Part shown: piece after piece, positions 16,535 through 32,000 of the stretch | How the letters are laid out: every line of letters begins with the position of its first letter | Position numbering within the stretch: the stretch's first letter is position 1 | Assembly: GCA_041494705.1 (NCBI GenBank) | Contig: JBGQBI010000001.1 | Coordinates: forward strand, 330,001 to 362,000 | Origin: Candidatus Methanoperedens sp. | GTDB taxonomy: Archaea; Halobacteriota; Methanosarcinia; Methanosarcinales; Methanoperedenaceae | DNA: 32,000 bases | Direction of reading: 5' to 3' | Position numbers and translations under genes: made by a program | The notes under the pieces: model-generated | Databases searched by the model: none | The model's input: only the letters and a program-made list of their open reading frames with translations | What the model was told of the DNA's origin: nothing

Positions 16535-17488
16535 ATGTTGTCCCCAGGAAAAAACCTGTATTTATTATTGAATAATAAATTTGTATTGATTTTAGTACTT
16601 TTAATCTCATTATTTACTTCGATTGGTTATGCACAAGAGGATATTTCATGCTATCATTGCCATACAAAGGTGGTATCCGAATTCAGGAATAATATACATT
16701 ATCAAAAAGGTTTCACATGCGCCGATTGTCACGGAGGGAATGACCAGTCGAACTCTTCTGTGATATCCTACAGCGTGATGTCAGGAAACTTTATCGGAAG
16801 ACCCAGCAGGAACAATATAACAAACGTCTGCTCTAAATGCCATCCTCAGGAAGCAAAGGATTACAAGACAAGCATTCACTGGGCACAGATCCAAAAAGGT
16901 CATCCTGAGGCTGCAACATGCACCGATTGTCATGGAGTTCATGAAATCCGGGCAATATCCGATCCAAATTCATCCTCGAACCACCAGAACAGCCCTGCAA
17001 CATGCGCAAAATGCCACTCGAACAAGGAAATGATGAGCGCGTGGTATTATGGTATTAAAACCGACAGATTTGATACCTATAAGGAATCGTTCCACTGGCG
17101 GGCACTAAGTAAAGGTTATACGATGGTCGCCACATGTTCCGACTGCCATGGCAACCACAACACAAAAGCAACTACAGACCCTACTTCCAGCACATACCCG
17201 GAAAACCTTCCCAAAACATGCGGCAAGCCGAATTGCCATCCAGGGGTCAATTTTGATGCCAAGATAGCCTCAGGACTGGTACATGACAAAGAGTCACTCC
17301 ATACAGGTGAACTTGTTTTCAACAAGACAAATATGGCGCAGATGAAAGATTATTTCCTCGGCCCTTTCGACCTTGCGTACTGGATAGCAATATTTTTCAA
17401 GGTATTAACGACCGGGGTCATCGGTATCTTTGCAGGGATGGTTATTCTGGATTTTCTCTCGCGGCTTAAAATCCACAAGAGATGGTAA
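16535..17488 (+). CDS. Multihaem c-type cytochrome (6 CXXCH + 1 CX4CH), N-terminal signal/anchor and C-terminal TM helix
   Basis: 317 aa. Motifs are CYHCH, CADCH, CSKCH, CTDCH, CAKCH, CSDCH and CGKPNCH. The repeated H...C.DCHG.H pattern resembles doubled-CXXCH domains. C-terminal YWIAIFFKVLTTGVIGIFAGMVILDFL. Confidence 0.85.
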   Translation: MLSPGKNLYLLLNNKFVLILVLLISLFTSIGYAQEDISCYHCHTKVVSEFRNNIHYQKGFTCADCHGGNDQSNSSVISYSVMSGNFIGRPSRNNITNVCSKCHPQEAKDYKTSIHWAQIQKGHPEAATCTDCHGVHEIRAISDPNSSSNHQNSPATCAKCHSNKEMMSAWYYGIKTDRFDTYKESFHWRALSKGYTMVATCSDCHGNHNTKATTDPTSSTYPENLPKTCGKPNCHPGVNFDAKIASGLVHDKESLHTGELVFNKTNMAQMKDYFLGPFDLAYWIAIFFKVLTTGVIGIFAGMVILDFLSRLKIHKRW

Positions 17489-18252
17489 AAATGCCCGGAC
17501 AAAAATTACTTGAGGTTTCTGATTCGGAAATAAGAGGAGATAATACTATGGGAGAAGTTTTTTTCAAAAGGTTCACTTTCAATCAACTTTTAGAACACTG
17601 GGTAATGATCGGGTCATTCATGCTCCTTGTGATAAGTGGAATGCCTCTTAAATTTCCTGACGCCTGGTGGTCTCCGGTAATCATAAATCTACTGGGCGGA
17701 TTTGAAATGAGGACTCTTATACACCATACTGCAGGCATTGGAATGGTTGTTCTGGGTGTCTATCATGTCGTTTACCATGTCTTTATTGATAGAGAATCGA
17801 TGCTTGAGCGCAAAGTGTGGCCTACTTTAAAAGATGTGCAGGATTTCTGGCAGACAATACTATTCTACATCGGGAAGTCAGAGCATCCGAAATTCGGAAG
17901 GTACAGCTGGAAGGAAAAATTCGATTACTGGGGCGCCTTCTGGGGTATGGTGATGCTCTGTGTTACCGGACTTATTATGATGTTTCCTTTTATGGCTATG
18001 GAATATATTCCATATGCATATGTGCACCTGTCAACCCTTATTCATACCGATGAGGCATTATTGGCAACCCTGTTTATTTTTATAGTCCACTGGTGGAATG
18101 TTCATTACAACCCTGAGGTTTTCCCGATGTCAAAAGCATGGATTACGGGTAACCTCTCAGAGGAACAGATGAAACATGAACATCCGCTTGAGTATGAAGA
18201 GATAATGAGACAGATGAATGAAAAAAGCGAGAAAATTACATTTAATAGATAA
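17482..18252 (+). CDS. Dihaem b-type cytochrome, membrane subunit (FdnI / Ni-Fe hydrogenase cytochrome b-like)
   Basis: About 5 predicted TM helices carry conserved His residues (LEHW, HHTAG, HTDEAL, HWWNVH). A more likely start is ATG 17548, preceded by GAGGAG. Overlaps or abuts the cytochrome c gene. Confidence 0.75.
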   Translation: MVKMPGQKLLEVSDSEIRGDNTMGEVFFKRFTFNQLLEHWVMIGSFMLLVISGMPLKFPDAWWSPVIINLLGGFEMRTLIHHTAGIGMVVLGVYHVVYHVFIDRESMLERKVWPTLKDVQDFWQTILFYIGKSEHPKFGRYSWKEKFDYWGAFWGMVMLCVTGLIMMFPFMAMEYIPYAYVHLSTLIHTDEALLATLFIFIVHWWNVHYNPEVFPMSKAWITGNLSEEQMKHEHPLEYEEIMRQMNEKSEKITFNR

Positions 18253-18259
18253 TTTTTTT
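18253..18259 (+). terminator. Oligo-T (T7) immediately after the cytochrome b stop
   Basis: TAATTTTTTTA. Archaeal intrinsic terminators are oligo-T tracts. Confidence 0.4.
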
Positions 18260-18421
18260 AAGTTTCATGTAGATGTGTAGATAGTATAAGTCGGAGATGT
18301 GATTCATTATTCGTGAGAATCTGTGTCATCCATGCGCTACGCGTGTTCTATTACCCGTTTCAAGACAATAGAATAGCTAACTCCGCTGAAAATCAATCCA
18401 AGGCTGCTTCCAAAACCAGTC

Positions 18422-18459
18422 AAAATAAAAAAGAAAAACGTACCCGCAAGAAAGGGTAC
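18422..18459 (-). terminator. Hairpin plus T-rich tract after the 13-haem cytochrome gene
   Basis: On the minus strand: GTACCC-tttcttgc-GGGTAC followed by GTTTTTCTTTTTTATTTT. Confidence 0.55.
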
Positions 18460-18470
18460 TGTTTTATCAA

Positions 18471-19580
18471 TTACTTTCCTGTTTTACCGCTGGCTACTCC
18501 AGTGGCATGGCAATCTGCGCAAAACTTGGGTTGATGGCAATCGCTGCATACTTTGCCTATCAAAACCTGCGTCTTATGTGTTTTTAACCAGTCCGTAGGA
18601 TGCTCTTTGCTGTGGCAGGTAGCGCATAGATTCTCCTTTATCGTGGGGGTATGCTTTACATCAGAATGGCAGTTATAACACGCGATCTTATTGTTCGTTA
18701 CATGAGTCTTATGCACGAATGCGAAATCGTCGTATTTGTCCACCCTTTCCCTGATATTATGGCATGAATAGCATTTATCCTTCGGGACTATGTCGTTAGC
18801 TCCTGTTGAAACATTTGTATGGCAGGTCATGCATACATAACCCCGGTCGAGATGGCTCGTATGATTAAAGTTTGTATAATTGCTTTGTGCCATTTCTTTT
18901 GGCGGCCCGTGACAGGATGGACATCCCGATATTGAGGTGTTACCGGACACGTCCCTGAAATGACAGGTAAAACAGGTTGAAGTGGTCACCACTATATGTC
19001 CAAGATCCGTTCGTGCAATGCCAGGATGGCACTGGTTGCACGATGGATCAGATACGGACTGGTGCTCTTTCATACCGATGACAAGCATGGAATGACAGCT
19101 TGTGCATGTCAAGCTTATACCTCTCTTGGGTTGAAGCAGATGGTTCTTGTGGCTGAAATTGATGCCAGTATACGGTACATCCGAGGAAAATATGCGCTTT
19201 TCATGGCAGATGAGACAATTATTATCCATTACCTTCGCATACAATTTCCCCGAATATTCTTCAACCGTGGTTTCATAACTGTAAAACTGCATAAGCCCGT
19301 TGATTTTACCTTTCAAATGTCCTATCAACCCCGGTTCATAATGGCATTCAACACATCGAACATCGCTATGGGAAGAAGTTCGCCATGAGTCGTAATACGG
19401 TCTCATTATATGGCAATTCTTTCCACAAAACGCAGGATTCTCTGTTATTTCCAGCATTTTTTCTGTGACAACTAACGTTGTAGTAACGAGGACAATCAAT
19501 ACAATTATGATTAATAACTTATTTCTTGAAATCCAGTTCTTGACTGCAGCCGTAATCGAAATCTTATCCATTGGCGTCAC
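18471..19580 (-). CDS. NapC/NirT/NrfH-like membrane-anchored multihaem cytochrome c (12 CXXCH + 1 CX3CH)
   Basis: 369 aa with an N-terminal TM helix (LLIIIVLIVLVTTTLVV). The first motif FCGKNCHIMRP sits where NapC-type proteins have their first haem site. Twelve further CXXCH motifs follow. Confidence 0.85.
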   Translation of the reverse strand: MTPMDKISITAAVKNWISRNKLLIIIVLIVLVTTTLVVTEKMLEITENPAFCGKNCHIMRPYYDSWRTSSHSDVRCVECHYEPGLIGHLKGKINGLMQFYSYETTVEEYSGKLYAKVMDNNCLICHEKRIFSSDVPYTGINFSHKNHLLQPKRGISLTCTSCHSMLVIGMKEHQSVSDPSCNQCHPGIARTDLGHIVVTTSTCFTCHFRDVSGNTSISGCPSCHGPPKEMAQSNYTNFNHTSHLDRGYVCMTCHTNVSTGANDIVPKDKCYSCHNIRERVDKYDDFAFVHKTHVTNNKIACYNCHSDVKHTPTIKENLCATCHSKEHPTDWLKTHKTQVLIGKVCSDCHQPKFCADCHATGVASGKTGK

Positions 19581-20558
19581 TCACCGTTTTCTGATTAAGT
19601 ATAACACTGCAAATATTCCGATTGCCATGACAATCCCAAAACCCGGCGTGCGCGGCGGTACGGTGGGTTCAACGCCAGAAGTTTTATATTCAGCTCTTTT
19701 GGCGGAATCAATCCCGCTCTGTACCTGACTGTCAAAATCCTTAAGATTAAACGCATGCCATAAAAAGGGAATATCGTTCATTACTGACGTTGCTTTATCC
19801 AGGTCAAGCTGTGCAGACGAGACATCTCTTCCACTTGCTTTTGCTTCCTCGACCGCTTTTCTAGCTTTAATTACTTCAGCCTGGAATTCATTGGCTTTTT
19901 CAAGGGCAAGTTTTGCATCCTTCGGAACACTCGCTGTAGCTATATTGTCTTTCTGGTTATGGCAAACACTGCACAGTGGAATGAGTTCGGACGCTTTAAG
20001 CACCTTGAATGTATGGGGTTTGTGGCATGTAATACACGAAGGGGCACGGGATTCTGCTCTCAGTCTCTGATAATGCATTGTATTCTTGAAATGGTCAAGT
20101 TCTTCGGCATGGCATTTTCCACAGGTGTCAGGAATATTTTTAAAATAAATAGAACTGTTTGGGTCATTTGGGCCTTTCATTGCGGCATGAGCACCGGCTT
20201 CAGTTTTTGCGGTAGGATCCCCGCCGTGGCATGCATCGCAGGTGACATAATATTCTGAATGGAGAGAATCAGACCACTGCTGGAAATTGTCAGAAGCTCT
20301 TTTACGGATGACATCTTCGTGGCATTCAAGCGAGCAGGAGATGTTTCTCTCGGTATGGTTAAGTCTTATTTCATTAAAACGGCTCTGCTCATCCGTAAAT
20401 GGAGATAGTTTTTTATGGCAATCCACGCAAGAATTATTAAGAGAGCCTGAGTTTGTAGCCCCGGTTGGAGCGATTAATATTGTGAAATATATAAAAAACA
20501 GAGATATAGCTATAAATCTATGCCAGCAGGGTTGTAATTTTTCATTTTTTGAAAACAT
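19581..20558 (-). CDS. Multihaem cytochrome c (5 CXXCH + 1 CX3CH) with a PGF-CTERM archaeosortase sorting signal
   Basis: 325 aa with a signal peptide. Motifs are CVDCH, CSLECH, CDACH, CGKCH, CITCH and CSVCH. The C-terminus is TSGVEPTVPPRT-PGF-GIVMAIGIFAVLYLI-RKR*. Its stop abuts the start of the downstream cytochrome gene. Confidence 0.85.
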   Translation of the reverse strand: MFSKNEKLQPCWHRFIAISLFFIYFTILIAPTGATNSGSLNNSCVDCHKKLSPFTDEQSRFNEIRLNHTERNISCSLECHEDVIRKRASDNFQQWSDSLHSEYYVTCDACHGGDPTAKTEAGAHAAMKGPNDPNSSIYFKNIPDTCGKCHAEELDHFKNTMHYQRLRAESRAPSCITCHKPHTFKVLKASELIPLCSVCHNQKDNIATASVPKDAKLALEKANEFQAEVIKARKAVEEAKASGRDVSSAQLDLDKATSVMNDIPFLWHAFNLKDFDSQVQSGIDSAKRAEYKTSGVEPTVPPRTPGFGIVMAIGIFAVLYLIRKR

Positions 20559-24580: not shown

Positions 24581-24788
24581 CTTTATATAGGGTATTTAAA
24601 GCTTTAAATACGTTGGGGTAAAAAATAAAAATTGTTTAAAAAGTATTGGAAAAATGAAAATGCCACAGTACTGTTTATAAGAAATCTTTAATTACAATGA
24701 CATTGTCTAAGCCAGCTAGCGGCGGGAGAATATCCCGCAGGGATGTGGCCTTATAAGGCTGAACCATAAAACAATAAAGGAGAATACA

Positions 24789-25874: not shown

Positions 25875-26249
25875 ATGGTCACAAATGAAATTTTTGATAA
25901 TTATTTACCTGTCGTAATTCTTACGATTGTAGGCGTGGTGTTTGTAGCCATCTCTTTATTCATGTCAAGAATGGTCAGGCCGAGCAATAAAACCAAGGAA
26001 AAATTATCAACGTACGAATGCGCGGAAGTGCCAATCGGGGATGCGCGGGTCCATTTCAACATACAATATTACCTTATAGTGATTGTTTTCCTGATATTTG
26101 ATGTCGAGGTTTTGTTCTTATACCCATGGGCCGTGCAATTCAAGAAGCTCGGGCCGCTTGGTTTCTTTGAGATGGTCATTTTTATTGAAATACTTATTAT
26201 CGGTCTTGCCTATGCATGGAGGAAGGAGGCTTTAGAGTGGATCCAGTAA
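25875..26249 (+). CDS. fpoA: F420H2 dehydrogenase (complex I-like) subunit A
   Basis: 124 aa with three TM helices. [44 protein letters not shown] is the NuoA signature. Confidence 0.9.
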
Positions 26250-26830
26250 CCATTGATACTACAAAAATCAAAACCGCCAAAAAGAAGCCGGTGACAGCAC
26301 TTGAGAAACTGGAAGATACCGGGCTAATAAATACTGTCCTGGCAGCCAGGGAAAGAGAAGGATTGATTCTCTTTTCAACAATAGACCAGGTTCTCAACTG
26401 GGCGCGTTTGAGTTCACTCTGGCCTGTAACGTCGGGTCTTGCCTGCTGCGCGATTGAAATGATGGGTGTGGCTATGGCTCACCATGATATTGCAAGATTC
26501 GGCATGGAGATTTTCAGGGCAAGCCCGAGACAGGCTGACCTCATGTTTGTTTCCGGGACTGTTACCAAAAAGATGGCGCCAAGAGTAAAACAACTTTATG
26601 AAATGATGCCCGACCCCAAATGGGTAATCGCAGTAGGAAGCTGTGCGTCAACAGGCGGGCCTTATCACGAGTCATATGCGGTCTTAAAAGGCGTGGACTT
26701 GATAATACCCGTGGATGTCTATATCCCTGGCTGCCCGCCCAGGCCTGAGGCATGGTTGTACGGGATTATCCAGTTAAGGGAAAAAATCAAGAACGAAGGA
26801 TACGGCGCAAAATGGGGGCTCAACAAATGA
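26237..26830 (+). CDS. fpoB: F420H2 dehydrogenase subunit B
   Basis: NuoB motifs [20 protein letters not shown] and [12 protein letters not shown] prefer GTG 26237 (GGAGG 7 nt upstream) over ATG 26216. Confidence 0.92.
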
Positions 26831-27330
26831 ACCCCGCTGACGAGTTAAAACAAAAGCTGCCTGCCGCTGTTATCAGTACAGGCATGCAGGTGAATAAGCC
26901 GATGGCTGTAATCAGGAAGGAGGAGCTTTTAAACGCCGCCAGAAAAGTGAAGGAAATGGGTTTTGACCATCTTTCTGTGATTACCGGTACCGATTATAAG
27001 GACCATTTTGAGGTTGTTTATAACTTCTTTTCTTACAGCAATAAACAGAATCTTGTATTGAAAGTTATTGCAGACCACGATAAGCCCGAAGTGGATTCGC
27101 TTACATCGCTCTGGAAAGGAGCGGACTGGCTTGAGCGGGAAACCTATGACCTTGTGGGAATTAGATTCAATGGGCATCCCAATCTTGTCCGAATCCTTTT
27201 AGCCGAAGGATGGATTGGGCACCCGCTTCAAAAGGATTATGACATGAACACAGAGCAATTCGTTACCATGGGGGAAAACGGGGAAGACATAGTCAGCACC
27301 GATGGGTCAAACCTGTTGAGGAGGAAGTAA
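26827..27330 (+). CDS. fpoC: F420H2 dehydrogenase subunit C
   Basis: NuoC signature [28 protein letters not shown] 26827 overlaps the fpoB stop (ATGA). The ORF-track start at 26752 lies inside fpoB. Confidence 0.9.
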
Positions 27331-27331
27331 C

Positions 27332-28480
27332 GTGGAGACCGATGAACTTATTGTAAACATGGGTCCGGTGCATCCCAGCACTCACGGTGTACTGCGCTTT
27401 AGATTAAGGATGGATGGCGAAATAATCAAGGAATGCACACCTGTCCTGGGTTATCTCCACAGGGGAACTGAAAAACTCGGTGAAATGAAAACGTATCTGC
27501 AATTTATACCATATACCGACAGGCTCGATTATCTCTCAGCTTTCCCCAACAATTATGCATTTGTCAAAGCGGTGGAAGAACTTGCAGGCATTGAAGTTCC
27601 GTTAAGGGCGGAATATATCCGCGTTATTGTCATGGAGCTTAACAGGATAGTGAACCATCTTGTATCTATCGGTTCCCTGCTGATGGATTTAGGTGCATCT
27701 ACAATGATGATGTGGGGATTCAGGGAAAGAGAGAATGCTCTCCAGCTATTCGAGAAGCTCTGCGGCGCAAGGATGACGTTCAATTATATCAAACCCGGCG
27801 GGGTAAGAGAAGACCTCCCCGAAGGCTTCATACCACAACTCAATGAGTTCCTGAAAGACATGGAAAAACGCATTGAGGATTATGAACAGCTTATCAACAG
27901 CAATGAAATATTCCTGATGAGAATGAAAAATATCGGTGTGATAAGCGCCGATGATGCCATAAATTACGGCATGACCGGTCCCACGCTTCGGGGTTCGGGC
28001 GTGAATTACGACCTTCGCAAATACGAGCCGTACTCGATATACCGTGACCTTGATTTCAGGGCATGTATGCGTAATGAATGCGACAGCTACGCAAGGTACA
28101 TGGTCAGGATAGACGAGATGAAAGAAAGCCTGCACATCCTGCGGCAGGTTGTTGATACCATGCCCGAAGCAAAGATTGTCAGCAGCGCAAAATACGGCAT
28201 AGCGCCGATGACAGGAGCCCCCTCTGCGGTATCGACATATTTCCCGAGGATTTTCGCACCGCCTGCAGGCGAAGTTTACAGCAGGATTGAGGCGCCCAAA
28301 GGAGAATTGGGTTTCTACATCATCAGTGACGGCACTACCAAACCGTATCGTGTAAAGATACGTTCTCCTTCTTTCTGCAATCTTACAGCAATACCCAAAA
28401 TGGTGCAGGGACTTAAAATCCCGGACCTGATAGCTGCTTTTGGAACTATTGATGTTGTGCTTGGCGACGTGGACAGGTGA
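27332..28480 (+). CDS. fpoD: F420H2 dehydrogenase subunit D
   Basis: 382 aa with NMGPVHPSTHGVLR, HRGTEKL and DVVLGDVDR, the NuoD signatures. Confidence 0.93.
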   Translation: METDELIVNMGPVHPSTHGVLRFRLRMDGEIIKECTPVLGYLHRGTEKLGEMKTYLQFIPYTDRLDYLSAFPNNYAFVKAVEELAGIEVPLRAEYIRVIVMELNRIVNHLVSIGSLLMDLGASTMMMWGFRERENALQLFEKLCGARMTFNYIKPGGVREDLPEGFIPQLNEFLKDMEKRIEDYEQLINSNEIFLMRMKNIGVISADDAINYGMTGPTLRGSGVNYDLRKYEPYSIYRDLDFRACMRNECDSYARYMVRIDEMKESLHILRQVVDTMPEAKIVSSAKYGIAPMTGAPSAVSTYFPRIFAPPAGEVYSRIEAPKGELGFYIISDGTTKPYRVKIRSPSFCNLTAIPKMVQGLKIPDLIAAFGTIDVVLGDVDR

Positions 28481-29592
28481 TGGGAATGATAGCAAACGCT
28501 TACGAACTGATTATTTATATATTGGAATTTTTTGGGGTTTACGGGCCAATCAAAAACATATTCCAGGTTCTCGGAATAGAGTTTGTTTTGAAAATCATAA
28601 TCGTACTGGTTGAGGTTGGTATTCTATTTGTTTTTGTGCTTCTCACTGTTATGTTCCTTACATGGATGGAACGAAAAGTCGTCGCCATGGTGCAGTCAAG
28701 GTACGGGCCCATGGTCACCGGACCGCGCGGCCTGCTCCAGCCGGTCATGGATGGCGTGAAACTCATCGGGAAAGAAGATATTATACCCGCAAAGGCTGAC
28801 AGGTGGATATTTACACTTGCTCCTTTTATCATATTTATCCCCGCGCTCCTTGTGTTCATTCCCCTTCCATTCGGCCAGTCGCTGATAATATCCGACCTGC
28901 GGGTAGGGTTGCTCTACATCATCGCGATTTCAGCGGTATCGCCCGTAGCTATACTGCTCGCAGGATGGGCCTCGAATAACAAATATTCGCTTATGGGCGC
29001 AATGAGGGCCGTGGCGCAGGATATCAGTTATACCATCCCGCTTGCCCTTGCAGCAATTGCCATTGTGTTATTTACAGGTTCTCTCAGCACCGTGGATATC
29101 GTGAATGCACAGAGCGGAACATGGTTCGGGATAATCCCCAAATGGTTCATATTCATACAGCCTCTCGGATTTATCCTGTTCCTTATCGCCTCTATCGCTG
29201 AAATGGGGAGAATACCGTTTGACTTCCAGGAATCCGAATCCGAGCTTGTCGCAGGGTTTTTCACAGAATATAGCGGAATGAAATTCGCAATGTTCTTCCT
29301 TGCAGAATATGCGCATCTGTTCGCAGTCTCAGGAATCGTTGTTACACTGTTCCTTGGAGGATGGACATTCCCCATTCTTCCCTTTGTCCCTCCAATGTTA
29401 GTTCCACTGGTATCGCTGGGAATCTTCCTGGTTAAAACTTACGCGGTAATATTCTTTGCAATGTGGCTCCGTGACACCGTGCCGAGGATGAGGATAGACC
29501 AGCTTCTTAATATCGGATGGAAAATAATGGTGCCGCTTGCACTTTTGAACCTGCTGCTTGCGGGATTCCTTATTACCGCGGGGGTGTTCTGA
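28477..29592 (+). CDS. fpoH: F420H2 dehydrogenase subunit H
   Basis: 371 aa polytopic protein. WMERKVVAMVQSRYGPMVTGPRGLLQPVMDGVKL and PFDFQESESELVAGFFTEYSG are NuoH signatures. Confidence 0.93.
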   Translation: MMGMIANAYELIIYILEFFGVYGPIKNIFQVLGIEFVLKIIIVLVEVGILFVFVLLTVMFLTWMERKVVAMVQSRYGPMVTGPRGLLQPVMDGVKLIGKEDIIPAKADRWIFTLAPFIIFIPALLVFIPLPFGQSLIISDLRVGLLYIIAISAVSPVAILLAGWASNNKYSLMGAMRAVAQDISYTIPLALAAIAIVLFTGSLSTVDIVNAQSGTWFGIIPKWFIFIQPLGFILFLIASIAEMGRIPFDFQESESELVAGFFTEYSGMKFAMFFLAEYAHLFAVSGIVVTLFLGGWTFPILPFVPPMLVPLVSLGIFLVKTYAVIFFAMWLRDTVPRMRIDQLLNIGWKIMVPLALLNLLLAGFLITAGVF

Positions 29593-30008
29593 TGGCCTGG
29601 ATAAGCAAGAACTGGGCAATGAGCGGTATAATAAAAGGACTCATTGTCACATTAAAACATGTTTTACACATCGGGAACAGGCCCACGGTTACAGTGCAGT
29701 ATCCATATGAAAGGATGAAGGTTTCACCGAGATTCAGGGGATTGCATGCAGTTGATGAAAATGCCTGCATCGGCTGCGGGATATGTGAAGTGAACTGCCC
29801 GAACGGAACTATCCGGATAGTCAAATATAATACAAGATGGTATCCTCAGGTCAATATCGGAATGTGCCTCTTCTGCGGAATATGCGTCGATGTCTGCCCG
29901 ATGAATGCCATGAAAATGACGGGCAATTACGAACTTGCAGACTATACCCGGCAAAGCCTTGTGTACGGTCCTGACAGGCTGTTGTTCAATAAAGAGGTGA
30001 AACAGTGA
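29592..30008 (+). CDS. fpoI: F420H2 dehydrogenase subunit I (2x[4Fe-4S] ferredoxin-type)
   Basis: CIGCGICEVNCP and CLFCGICVDVCP. ATG 29592 overlaps the fpoH stop by 1 nt. The ORF-track start at 29517 lies inside fpoH. Confidence 0.9.
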   Translation: MAWISKNWAMSGIIKGLIVTLKHVLHIGNRPTVTVQYPYERMKVSPRFRGLHAVDENACIGCGICEVNCPNGTIRIVKYNTRWYPQVNIGMCLFCGICVDVCPMNAMKMTGNYELADYTRQSLVYGPDRLLFNKEVKQ

Positions 30009-30250
30009 TAGACATTGTATTTGTGGTTATTTCAATCATCACGATTTTATCATCAATAATGGTGGTCCAGGCAAAAAAATTAGTCCATAGCGCCGTATAT
30101 CTTGCAGGCGCCCTTATCGGTACGGCCGGGCTTTTCATTCTGCTCAAGGCTGAGTTCATCGCATGGATACAGGTGCTCGTTTATGTGGGAGCAGTTGTAA
30201 CGCTGATACTGTTCACGATAATGCTAACAAGGAAGGGAGAGGAAGAATAA
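30005..30250 (+). CDS. fpoJ: F420H2 dehydrogenase subunit J, N-terminal half
   Basis: 81 aa with three TM helices (VHSAVYLAGALIGTAGLFILL...WIQVLVYVGAVVTLILFTIML), NuoJ-like. Ends at TAA 30248-30250. Confidence 0.8.
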   Translation: MIDIVFVVISIITILSSIMVVQAKKLVHSAVYLAGALIGTAGLFILLKAEFIAWIQVLVYVGAVVTLILFTIMLTRKGEEE

Positions 30251-30502
30251 ATGCTCAACAAACTCTTAAATTTACTGATTATATTGCTTTTATTTGCAGT
30301 ATTGTTCCTGGCAATCGATGACAGTACAAGGGTGTGGGCAGGAAAAGAAGAGGTAACTCCCATCAGTATAGAGGAAATCGCAGGAGGGCCGGCTGCCAGA
30401 GGCGGGATATTCAGTGATTATATTTTTTCTTTTGAACTGCTCTCACTGCTGCTGCTGGCTGCGTTAATCGGCGCCCTGTATATTGCAAAAAAGGAGGCGT
30501 AG
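30251..30502 (+). CDS. fpoJ: F420H2 dehydrogenase subunit J, C-terminal half
   Basis: 83 aa. The ATG follows the preceding TAA directly, in the same frame. [24 protein letters not shown] matches the NuoJ C-terminal helix. Confidence 0.8.
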
Positions 30503-30503
30503 C

Positions 30504-30803
30504 ATGTCCCTTTATACATATCTATTAATTTCTGCAATCATATTCGCAATCGGTTCATATGGAATAATTACACAGAGAAGTGGAATTAAAATCCTTATGT
30601 GCATAGAACTCCTGCTCAATTCTGCAAATCTTAACCTTGTCGCATTTTCAAGTTTCAATGGTAACGCCACAGGCCAGGTTTTCGCCATATTTTCAATCGC
30701 AATAGCAGCCGCGGAAGCGGCTATCGGATTTGCCATACTTGTAGCCCTTTTCAGGGTGCGGGATACGATAAATCTCGATGACATCAATATTCTGAGGTGG
30801 TAA
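30504..30803 (+). CDS. fpoK: F420H2 dehydrogenase subunit K
   Basis: 99 aa, NuoK-like ([18 protein letters not shown]...[17 protein letters not shown]). ATG 30504 is preceded by AAGGAGG. The ORF-track start at 30483 overlaps fpoJ. Confidence 0.9.
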
Positions 30804-30804
30804 T

Positions 30805-32000
30805 ATGTTCAGTGATTACGCAGCATTAATTGTGTTACTGCCTGTAATTGCGTTTGTACTGACGCTTTTCCTGGGTAAGAAACTGTATTCAGGCGGAGCA
30901 TTGCTACCAATTGCCGCCATTGCAGGCTCGTTTATCATCTCTTTGGGGACTTTCCTTGAGATTTACCCGACAAACGGGATAGTCCAGCAATCGTGGCCGT
31001 GGTTTGCAGGCATGAATATCGGCATACTCATCGACCCGCTTGCGGTCGTTATGCTGATGATGGTTTCATTCGTAAGCCTGCTCATCCATATCTACGCTGT
31101 GGGATACATGTCGCATGACCCTGCAAAACCGAGATATTTCGCAGAAACGTCGCTCTTTACAGCAGCAATGTTGAGCGTAGTCCTCTCTGATAATATTCTC
31201 CAGTTCTTCATATCATGGGAACTCGTGGGTCTTTGTTCGTTCCTGCTTATCGGGTTCTGGTACCATAAGCCGTCAGCAGCAGCGGCAGCAAAGAAAGCAT
31301 TCCTTGTGACAAGAGTGGGTGATGTGCTGTTCCTTGCAGGGATAGTCCTGCTCTATGTCAATATGAGCGAGATTATTGCAGGACGCGGTTTCAGCATAGC
31401 CCAGGGTAACTTTATGCTACAGTTCAAGACCATGTTCGAGGCAATACCACTCATCAATCCCACCCAACTGACCTATATCACTTTACTATTCTTCGGTGGC
31501 GCCATAGGCAAGAGCGGCCAGTTCCCGCTTCACGGGTGGCTGCCTGATGCCATGGAAGGCCCGACAACGGTTTCTGCTTTGATTCATGCCGCAACAATGG
31601 TTACCGCCGGCGTATATCTTGTCGCCCGGACGTTCCCCATGTTTGCGGCAACGCCCTCCACACTTTCACCAGGTGTACCGGATTCGCTACTCATCGTGGC
31701 TTATGTTGGAGGGTTCACCGCGCTATTCGCTGCTACAATGGGACTTGTAATGAACGATATTAAAAGGGTGCTTGCCTACTCGACCGTTAGCCAGCTCGGC
31801 TATATGATGCTCGCCCTGGGAACGGCGGGGGCGGTTGTAGGCTCCCAGGCTGTTGGAATATCCATGTTCCACCTGATAAGCCATGCCTTTTTCAAGGCGC
31901 TCCTCTTCCTCTGCGCCGGAAGCGTTATTCATGCAGTAGGCACAAACGACATTCGCGAGATGGGGGGTTTGTTTAGCAAGATGAAGATTACAGCCACAAC
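30805..32000 (+). CDS. fpoL: F420H2 dehydrogenase subunit L (N-terminal roughly 398 codons; continues past the window)
   Basis: My own translation from ATG 30805: MFSDYAALIVLLPVIAFVLTLFLGKK...ISWELVGLCSFLLIGFWYHKPSAAAAAKKAF...GKSGQFPLHGWLPDAMEGPTTVSALIHAATMVTAG, the NuoL/antiporter-like signature. No stop occurs before the window end, which is why it is absent from the ORF track. Confidence 0.9.
   Translation, partial: MFSDYAALIVLLPVIAFVLTLFLGKKLYSGGALLPIAAIAGSFIISLGTFLEIYPTNGIVQQSWPWFAGMNIGILIDPLAVVMLMMVSFVSLLIHIYAVGYMSHDPAKPRYFAETSLFTAAMLSVVLSDNILQFFISWELVGLCSFLLIGFWYHKPSAAAAAKKAFLVTRVGDVLFLAGIVLLYVNMSEIIAGRGFSIAQGNFMLQFKTMFEAIPLINPTQLTYITLLFFGGAIGKSGQFPLHGWLPDAMEGPTTVSALIHAATMVTAGVYLVARTFPMFAATPSTLSPGVPDSLLIVAYVGGFTALFAATMGLVMNDIKRVLAYSTVSQLGYMMLALGTAGAVVGSQAVGISMFHLISHAFFKALLFLCAGSVIHAVGTNDIREMGGLFSKMKITAT

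Follow-up and report, generated by a model that had tools for sequence, protein, structure and literature searches.

How do archaea that oxidize methane with nitrate, metal oxides or electrodes drain their quinol pool? In Candidatus (Ca.) Methanoperedens the enzyme responsible is still unproven. The question is raised again by a 32,000-nucleotide stretch of a Ca. Methanoperedens genome, here called the window (contig JBGQBI010000001.1, positions 330,001 to 362,000), in which four consecutive genes, A to D, encode three multihaem c-type cytochromes and a cytochrome b. An initial annotation, made from the letters of the window alone, read these genes as one four-gene module forming a conduit from the membrane to the cell surface. 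Our survey of related genomes gives a different answer: A-B and D-C are two separately inherited units, and the conserved units are the pairs. We think it probable that each pair is a menaquinol:cytochrome c oxidoreductase module independent of the other, and that a lineage-specific rearrangement has set the two tail to tail. This reading draws on the anatomy of the proteins, on how they are conserved, on the synteny of their genes and on which partner genes the genome has or lacks.

Both pairs are already catalogued in the literature (PMC7327174, PMC4683180, PMC10542353), and we describe no new type of system. Our additions are the split of a six-gene cluster in one clade, the dissection of C into NrfH-like and ActA-like parts, a bookkeeping of haem ligands, and a reductase-free genomic background.

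The two cytochrome pairs are inherited separately

The four open reading frames (ORFs) and their content of 26 c-haem sites plus a b-type cytochrome, as given in the initial annotation, were confirmed by our ORF calls and by a script that counted seven c-haem motifs in A, 13 in C, six in D and none in B (Table 1). A cluster of 26 motifs is not a matter of chance, since across the 2.06-Mb genome just 29 ORFs have at least two CxxCH motifs.

We mapped eight relevant proteins in 57 named Methanoperedenaceae loci. In all the Methanoperedens genomes that we examined A is the gene immediately upstream of B, D precedes C in nearly all orthologous loci, and both pairs are kept at 77-95% identity to their relatives. 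The pairs are adjacent to one another in 15 of 43 orthologous loci; they sit on separate contigs in five genomes of the genus, and about 230 kb apart in Ca. M. nitroreducens ANME-2d. The usual neighbours of A-B, a rhomboid protein and a CxxCxxCC protein, tend to be kept with it even where D-C is elsewhere.

The loci fall into three classes. Class I, the arrangement of most Methanoperedens genomes, has 28 members, Ca. M. nitroreducens ANME-2d, BLZ2, Mnv1 and FeB_1 among them, in which D-C ends a co-directional run of six genes: a hexahaem cytochrome (D'), a tetrahaem cytochrome, an iron-sulphur (FeS) protein, NrfD, D and C. Eight of these 28 have B-A convergent downstream, making an eight-gene version. 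Class II, comprising seven loci and the window, has the order TtuA, D-C, B-A, CxxCxxCC protein, rhomboid (of the seven, two are truncated at D), and class III, with up to eight loci, has D-C on its own. In a midpoint-rooted maximum-likelihood tree of C, the loci with window-type order group in one clade (support 100/98) that is surrounded by loci of the six-gene type, and the layout of the window therefore looks derived. Here D is preceded by TtuA, not NrfD, and the NrfD/FeS adjacency is absent within the window. The unlinked half is intact elsewhere in the same genome (G000:C3:100291-103741), where genes for a PGF-CTERM hexahaem cytochrome, a 149-amino-acid tetrahaem cytochrome, a FeS protein with a Tat signal and NrfD are found together. 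This NrfD subunit matches PF03916 with an E-value of 1.4e-46, and its cluster is the only NrfD cluster in the genome.

Of the 24 genomes of the genus that were searched, 21 have C, with identities of 77-93%, and the three that lack it are 72-87% complete. C also turned up in a single genome from a different family of the order, and in none of 15 genomes from four other families of that order. A related-locus search with a narrower alignment gave matches in Methanoperedenaceae only.

Two individual loci depart from these patterns. About 6 kb is inserted between convergent C and B in L053 (CABMII010000114.1), the locus of a close relative, and in L068 (CAYXIP010000086.1) NrfD is followed by C with no D detectable between them; D may have been lost there.

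Table 1 Features of the cytochrome locus and its surroundings, in window coordinates.
Feature	Position	Strand	Details
A, heptahaem c-type cytochrome, 317 amino acids	16535..17488	+	6 CxxCH + 1 CX4CH (CGKPNCH)
B, FdnI-like dihaem cytochrome b, 256 amino acids	17482..18252	+	4 transmembrane helices, 12 His
GC-rich hairpin between convergent B and C, T-runs on either strand	18440..18459	.	probable bidirectional terminator
C, 13-haem membrane cytochrome, 369 amino acids	18471..19580	-	12 CxxCH + 1 CX3CH (CGKNCH)
NrfH-like quinol-dehydrogenase head of C, residues 23-164	19089..19514	-	first haem site CGKNCHIM
D, hexahaem cytochrome, 325 amino acids	19581..20558	-	5 CxxCH + 1 CX3CH (CSLECH), signal peptide
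PGF-CTERM sorting signal of D, residues 304-325, TPGFGIVMAIGIFAVLYLIRKR	19584..19649	-	PF18204
Complex I-like F420H2:quinone oxidoreductase (Fpo/Fqo) genes, subunits A, B, C, D, H, I ...	25875..32000	+	context

A and B resemble a membrane cytochrome b with a periplasm-side partner

The motifs and hydrophobic segments of A agree with its first description as a seven-haem cytochrome with a signal peptide and a C-terminal membrane anchor: a hydrophobic segment at residues 8-26 belongs to an N-terminal Sec-type signal peptide, and one at residues 290-308 is the C-terminal transmembrane anchor. A has Pfam matches to cytochrome c7/c3, and no significant match among PDB sequences (best E-value 0.0026). 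A and D are both of the cytochrome c7/c3 type and are distant relatives of one another. The genes for A and B overlap by 7 nucleotides.

B was initially given roughly five transmembrane helices; we count four hydrophobic helices, as in FdnI. It passes the PF01292 profile (44.1 bits, cut-off 30.1) and aligns with E. coli FdnI (1KQF_C, E-value 2.4e-10), with His39, His81, His188 and His203 on FdnI His18, His57, His155 and His169, which we take to be the four b-haem ligands in the structure of formate dehydrogenase-N (Fdh-N). The score against TIGR01583, the formate dehydrogenase gamma equivalog, is 61.8 bits and under its cut-off of 115.85; that against the hydrogenase cytochrome b model TIGR02125 is 19.2 bits (cut-off 121.5), and FdnI models are far better. 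B is a putative menaquinol-binding membrane subunit and A its putative partner on the periplasmic side. We considered B as a subunit of a formate dehydrogenase and rejected this assignment, given the sub-cut-off TIGR01583 score and the lack of an FdhA, FdnG or FdnH catalytic partner in the genome.

The order of a multihaem cytochrome followed by a cytochrome b is found too in Methanoperedenaceae GB50 and on two more metagenome contigs with distant homologues of B; one of these clusters is labelled Zixiibacteriota by its source. The other, on a 794-kb contig (L107, ENA contig_70828), brings together a 505-amino-acid NapC/NirT-type protein, a pair of multihaem cytochromes, a cytochrome b resembling B, and a fusion of cytochrome b and cytochrome c with 653 amino acids, in a layout that resembles Geobacter ImcH, CbcBA and CbcL in a row. 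The genome studied here encodes a second PF01292 cytochrome b of 214 amino acids (59.4 bits; G000:C1:263452-264096), on the same contig as the window.

C joins an NrfH-like head to a nine-haem tail

C has a single N-terminal transmembrane helix (residues 22-40), and its residues 22-166 pass the NapC/NirT profile PF03264 (47.8 bits, cut-off 24.1). These results, together with the first haem site, bear out the proposal of an N-terminal helix followed by a NapC/NrfH-like first haem. Against the NrfH model TIGR03153 the head scores 67.8 bits (E-value 9.6e-19), with residues 23-164 on positions 2-134 of the 138 in the profile. When C is aligned with Desulfovibrio vulgaris NrfH (2J7A_C), Met59 falls on Met49 of the CHxM motif and Lys92 on Lys82. 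In a Foldseek search with the AlphaFold2 (AF2) model of C, NrfH chains were the sole matches, and weak ones (E-value about 7e-3). Our full-text term searches of the literature on these clusters found no description of an NrfH-like head in the 13-haem protein.

Residues 171-350 of C find their matches in alternative complex III, among its pentahaem ActA subunits (6LOD_A, E-value 2.8e-8; 8K9E_A; 6F0K_A), and the tail of C is a nine-haem extension resembling ActA. Across 16 homologues with 53-89% identity, every one of the 13 motifs is invariant, as are Met59 and 12 His outside the motifs. This is the number of axial ligands required by one Met-type and twelve bis-His haems, and so by thirteen functional haems.

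The stop codon of D and the start of C had been described as abutting. A GTG does abut the stop of D; the orthologues of C, in contrast, begin at the ATG at 19571, 9 nucleotides past the TGA of D and behind a GGTGA Shine-Dalgarno-like motif (19569-19586, minus strand). This ATG is most likely the true start, and the predicted product would have 366 amino acids rather than 369. Judging operon structure from such sequence signals, we conclude that D is translationally coupled to C.

Shorter relatives of C also exist. A 248-amino-acid paralogue in this genome (G000:C2:447284-448030) has seven haem motifs, the CGKNCH head and a matching C-terminal end, and lacks the middle; short forms of 217-243 amino acids occur in other Methanoperedens genomes. 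Near the NrfD block, at C3:109201-110400, lies a gene for a 399-amino-acid NapC-like cytochrome with 15 CxxCH motifs.

D carries a lipid-anchoring signal

The C-terminal motif of D, TPGFGIVMAIGIFAVLYLIRKR, can be recognized by eye as a PGF-CTERM signal. D passes the PGF-CTERM profile PF18204 (19.7 bits, cut-off 18.8) and scores 13.6 against NCBIfam TIGR04126, under the cut-off of 24.5. Archaeosortase A (ArtA) is encoded in the genome (G000:C1:178842-179630; TIGR04125 245.5 bits, cut-off 75). PGF-CTERM proteins are the substrates of archaeosortase A, and the signal gives them a lipid anchor on the cytoplasmic membrane; it does not sort them to the surface beyond. What had been called a surface-sorting signal in D is therefore a tether to the cytoplasmic membrane, as is found in one form or another for all four products, and a conduit from membrane to surface overstates what these genes encode. 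D has no significant match among PDB sequences (best E-value 0.039); ahead of its anchor is a helical stretch, residues 213-294, that is predicted with confidence.

The genome has three paralogues of D: one heads the NrfD cluster and two adjoin the sole bc1-type cytochrome b. Three distinct quinol modules in a single genome thus each have a PGF-CTERM hexahaem cytochrome as partner. The two paralogues at the cytochrome b are PGF-CTERM hexahaem proteins with 41-45% identity to D, and lie just 5' of this only bc1/b6f-type cytochrome b gene (G000:C6:184094-187816).

The genome lacks recognizable reductases for soluble substrates

The Ca. Methanoperedens genome comprises 2.06 Mb in 6 contigs with a completeness of 99.5%, and mcrA was found in it; homologues of C bear the name Candidatus Methanoperedens. 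Two MqnA/D-family genes represent menaquinone synthesis. The initial annotation had noted that a dedicated partner reductase encoded elsewhere would speak against an extracellular role, and we looked for one. There are zero matches to NarG in this nearly complete genome, and nothing above the cut-off for NrfA (PF02335). Genome-wide, molybdopterin enzymes are limited to a pair of formylmethanofuran dehydrogenase B subunits (FwdB/FmdB; TIGR03129, 617 and 612 bits); therefore the genome has no recognizable reductase of the nitrate, nitrite, arsenate, selenate or similar type, and no formate dehydrogenase. From its gene content, this Methanoperedens lineage looks incapable of nitrate respiration. 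A small, reductase-free genome with one copy of each module type offers a simple background in which to test a role in extracellular electron transfer.

Relation to known systems

Five putative menaquinone:cytochrome c oxidoreductase clusters have been described in Methanoperedenaceae, including pairs of a b-type and a 6-haem cytochrome and clusters of NrfD, FeS protein and multihaem cytochromes (Leu et al. 2020, mBio, PMC7327174); the group numbering is inconsistent within that paper. In the version that Zhang et al. 2023 attribute to Leu, group 1 contains Methanoperedens_02260 with 12 CxxCH motifs, 02261 with 5, 02264 with 3 and 02265 with 5, and group 3 contains Methanoperedens_02529, with 6 CxxCH motifs and a signal peptide (PMC10542353).

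A-B fits group 3. The ANME-2d orthologue of A is 75% identical, has 6 CxxCH motifs and a CX4CH, and is followed by a 250-amino-acid cytochrome b; we see no substantive difference from Methanoperedens_02529, a tag assigned from its signal peptide and number of motifs and not from sequence. D and C correspond to the 5-CxxCH and 12-CxxCH members of group 1 (Methanoperedens_02260-02265), and probably also to members of ANME2D_00599-00604 and to MPEBLZ_04299/04300. The family is found in Ca. M. nitroreducens at 77% identity. Unlike the group 1 cluster, the genes are split in this genome and its clade, with D-C beside A-B and the hexahaem, tetrahaem, FeS and NrfD genes on contig C3.

For expression we relied on published data from other species. 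Under nitrate, MPEBLZ_04299 (5 CxxCH) and MPEBLZ_04300 (12 CxxCH and a CX3CH, with an N-terminal helix) reached RPKM values of 993 and 907 (Arshad et al. 2015, PMC4683180). Expression of the group 1 cytochromes peaked when soluble Fe(III) was supplied, and that of the group 3 cytochrome rose 2-fold with an electrode (PMC10542353). Putative orthologues, their tags matched without sequence, are thus expressed under nitrate, Fe(III) and electrode conditions, where the initial annotation had proposed to look for them.

In architecture, the one feature that we compared, A-B is like CbcBA of Geobacter sulfurreducens, a C-terminally anchored seven-haem cytochrome with a four-helix dihaem cytochrome b (bioRxiv 10.1101/2021.04.15.440034). 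CbcBA is a bacterial, sigma-54-regulated system and a proposed menaquinol oxidase for extracellular electron transfer. CbcB is reported to have three b-haem His, with the fourth on CbcA, whereas B itself carries all four, as FdnI does. A-B is also like Mco of ANME-2a/2b, in which a cytochrome b gene beside a 7-11-haem cytochrome is proposed to start off extracellular electron transfer (Chadwick et al. 2022, PMC9012536). Unlike B, which is FdnI-like and follows A, the b subunit of Mco is VhtC-like and precedes the cytochrome c; the likely substrate of A-B is menaquinol and that of Mco methanophenazine. We rejected an assignment of A-B to Mco because TIGR02125, the VhtC-type model, gives B so low a score.

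C shares with NrfH of D. vulgaris (2J7A/2VR0) and the NapC/NirT/CymA family the N-terminal transmembrane helix, the tetrahaem head, the CHxM and the equivalent of Lys82. It differs from NrfH in having 13 haems instead of 4, a CX3CH first site, Gln for Asp89, a genome without an NrfA partner and a sub-equivalog score. Among archaea, Ferp_1270, GACE_1341 and the decahaem GAH_01256 of Archaeoglobales are likewise NapC/NirT-type proteins with many extra haems (PMC4683180 Table 2; PMC8280799). The extended NapC/NirT proteins of Fe(III)-reducing Archaeoglobales have been proposed as quinol dehydrogenases for iron reduction (PMC4683180; PMC8280799); their reported identity to the Methanoperedens protein is 31-34%, and Ferp_1270 and GACE_1341 are weak homologues (PMC4683180).

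A model for the two pairs and its alternatives

From the features of the proteins we infer how quinol might be oxidized, which way electrons might flow and how the proteins might touch. Menaquinol made by the F420H2:quinone oxidoreductase would be oxidized at B, whose two b haems would pass the electrons on to A and its seven c haems on the outer face of the membrane. A, held at B by its C-terminal helix, would fill the place that the catalytic subunits FdnGH have in formate dehydrogenase-N. In the other pair, the NrfH-like tetrahaem head of C would oxidize menaquinol at the outer face and send the electrons along its thirteen haems to D, which archaeosortase A would have lipid-anchored nearby in the same membrane as C. 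C-D would probably also serve as the cytochrome arm of the NrfD/FeS complex, encoded here on contig C3. Both modules would feed the pseudoperiplasm, and other cytochromes would carry the electrons through the S-layer and onward to an extracellular acceptor. Such an acceptor is the likeliest destination because the genome has no reductase for a soluble substrate. Of the initial suggestion that the locus links the quinol pool to an extracellular acceptor, the outward-facing anatomy of a quinol:cytochrome c oxidoreductase holds up, and the part that these genes would cover is limited to the step from quinol to pseudoperiplasm.

A bolder version of the model would make C-D an autonomous third type of archaeal menaquinol dehydrogenase, built from an NrfH head, an ActA-like nine-haem wire and a lipid-anchored hexahaem acceptor, and ancestrally docking the NrfD/FeS proteins as a hybrid with two quinol sites. 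We regard this speculative proposal as rather unlikely. If it were true, the clade with unlinked halves and no soluble-substrate reductase would be a natural experiment in which each half works alone.

Several observations weigh against two working quinol-oxidizing modules. The quinone site of FdnI is on the cytoplasmic side of the membrane in the Fdh-N structure, and the energetics of B running in reverse are for this reason unclear. The TIGR03153 score of C is under the NrfH equivalog cut-off of 134.2, an invariant Gln98 stands in place of NrfH Asp89, and CX3CH takes the place of CxxCH at the first haem; that C oxidizes quinol is consequently plausible, not assured. In alternative complex III, ActA takes its electrons from FeS clusters, and by analogy C may need the NrfD/FeS module in order to work. 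Confidence in the AF2 models is low: for C the predicted local distance difference test score (pLDDT) is 65.7, and below 50 in the nine-haem part; for D it is 54.8, with confidence solely in helices 213-294 and an unreliable haem domain. The published locus tags were matched by haem-motif counts, helix and signal-peptide calls and gene order, not by sequence. Finally, we know of no protein of either module that has been purified or assayed in any organism.

How do other explanations compare with two independent modules? The contiguity of the four genes, here and in the closest relatives (L049-L055), is what one would expect if they were one functional unit and a single conduit from the quinol pool to the cell surface, and the larger eight-gene version in 8 further loci and the hairpin terminator shared by the convergent pairs fit this as well. 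We nevertheless consider it improbable. The pairs are on opposite strands and each has terminator signals, including an oligo-T run right after the stop codon of B (18254-18260); they are apart in so many of the loci surveyed above; each holds its own putative quinol-binding subunit; and no product reaches past its membrane tether. Less likely still, to the point that we give it very little credence, is that the modules feed a specific reductase in the pseudoperiplasm, either nitrate reductase or NrfA, and not an extracellular acceptor. The head of C is NrfH-like, and Ca. M. nitroreducens MPEBLZ grown on nitrate, for which transport to nitrate reductase was suggested, expresses the putative orthologues strongly (PMC4683180). 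The present genome, with FwdB/FmdB as its sole molybdopterin enzymes and neither NarG nor an NrfA above cut-off, nonetheless keeps both pairs well conserved.

The strongest challenge concerns C and D, which may not be autonomous at all and merely form the cytochrome c arm of an NrfD/FeS complex, in the manner of ActA, working here in trans with the products of contig C3. In 28 loci D-C stands directly behind NrfD and co-directional with it, the six genes are handled as one 'group 1' cluster in the literature (PMC10542353 Supplementary Data 6), the C-terminal part of C matches ActA, and this genome has retained exactly one NrfD cluster. The N-terminal third of C, however, is a near full-length NrfH head with the Met and the Lys82 equivalent invariant, and ActA has no such head. 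Moreover, D-C occurs without a nearby NrfD in the window clade and in at least five further loci with at least 5 kb of upstream sequence (L058, L060, L061, L081, L090). C also has paralogues that stand alone, namely a D-less copy with 71-72% identity in some relatives and the 7-haem copy in this genome and others. We therefore view a purely subordinate role for C and D as rather unlikely, and continue to favour two independent modules.

Surroundings of the locus

The complex I-like operon of Table 1 begins 5.3 kb from D, close to the 5 kb first reported. Five housekeeping genes, for TtuA, PurD, TBP, L15e and an RNA-binding protein, lie between them, and the proximity is the product of a lineage-specific rearrangement. 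With these intervening genes and a neighbourhood particular to the lineage, we rejected nearness as an argument for a functional link to Fpo. The remaining content of the window consists of housekeeping genes and a pilin-like operon. Directly 5' of the L15e gene, at 24723-24770, is an eL15 ribosomal-protein leader (Rfam RF03144, 44.8 bits).

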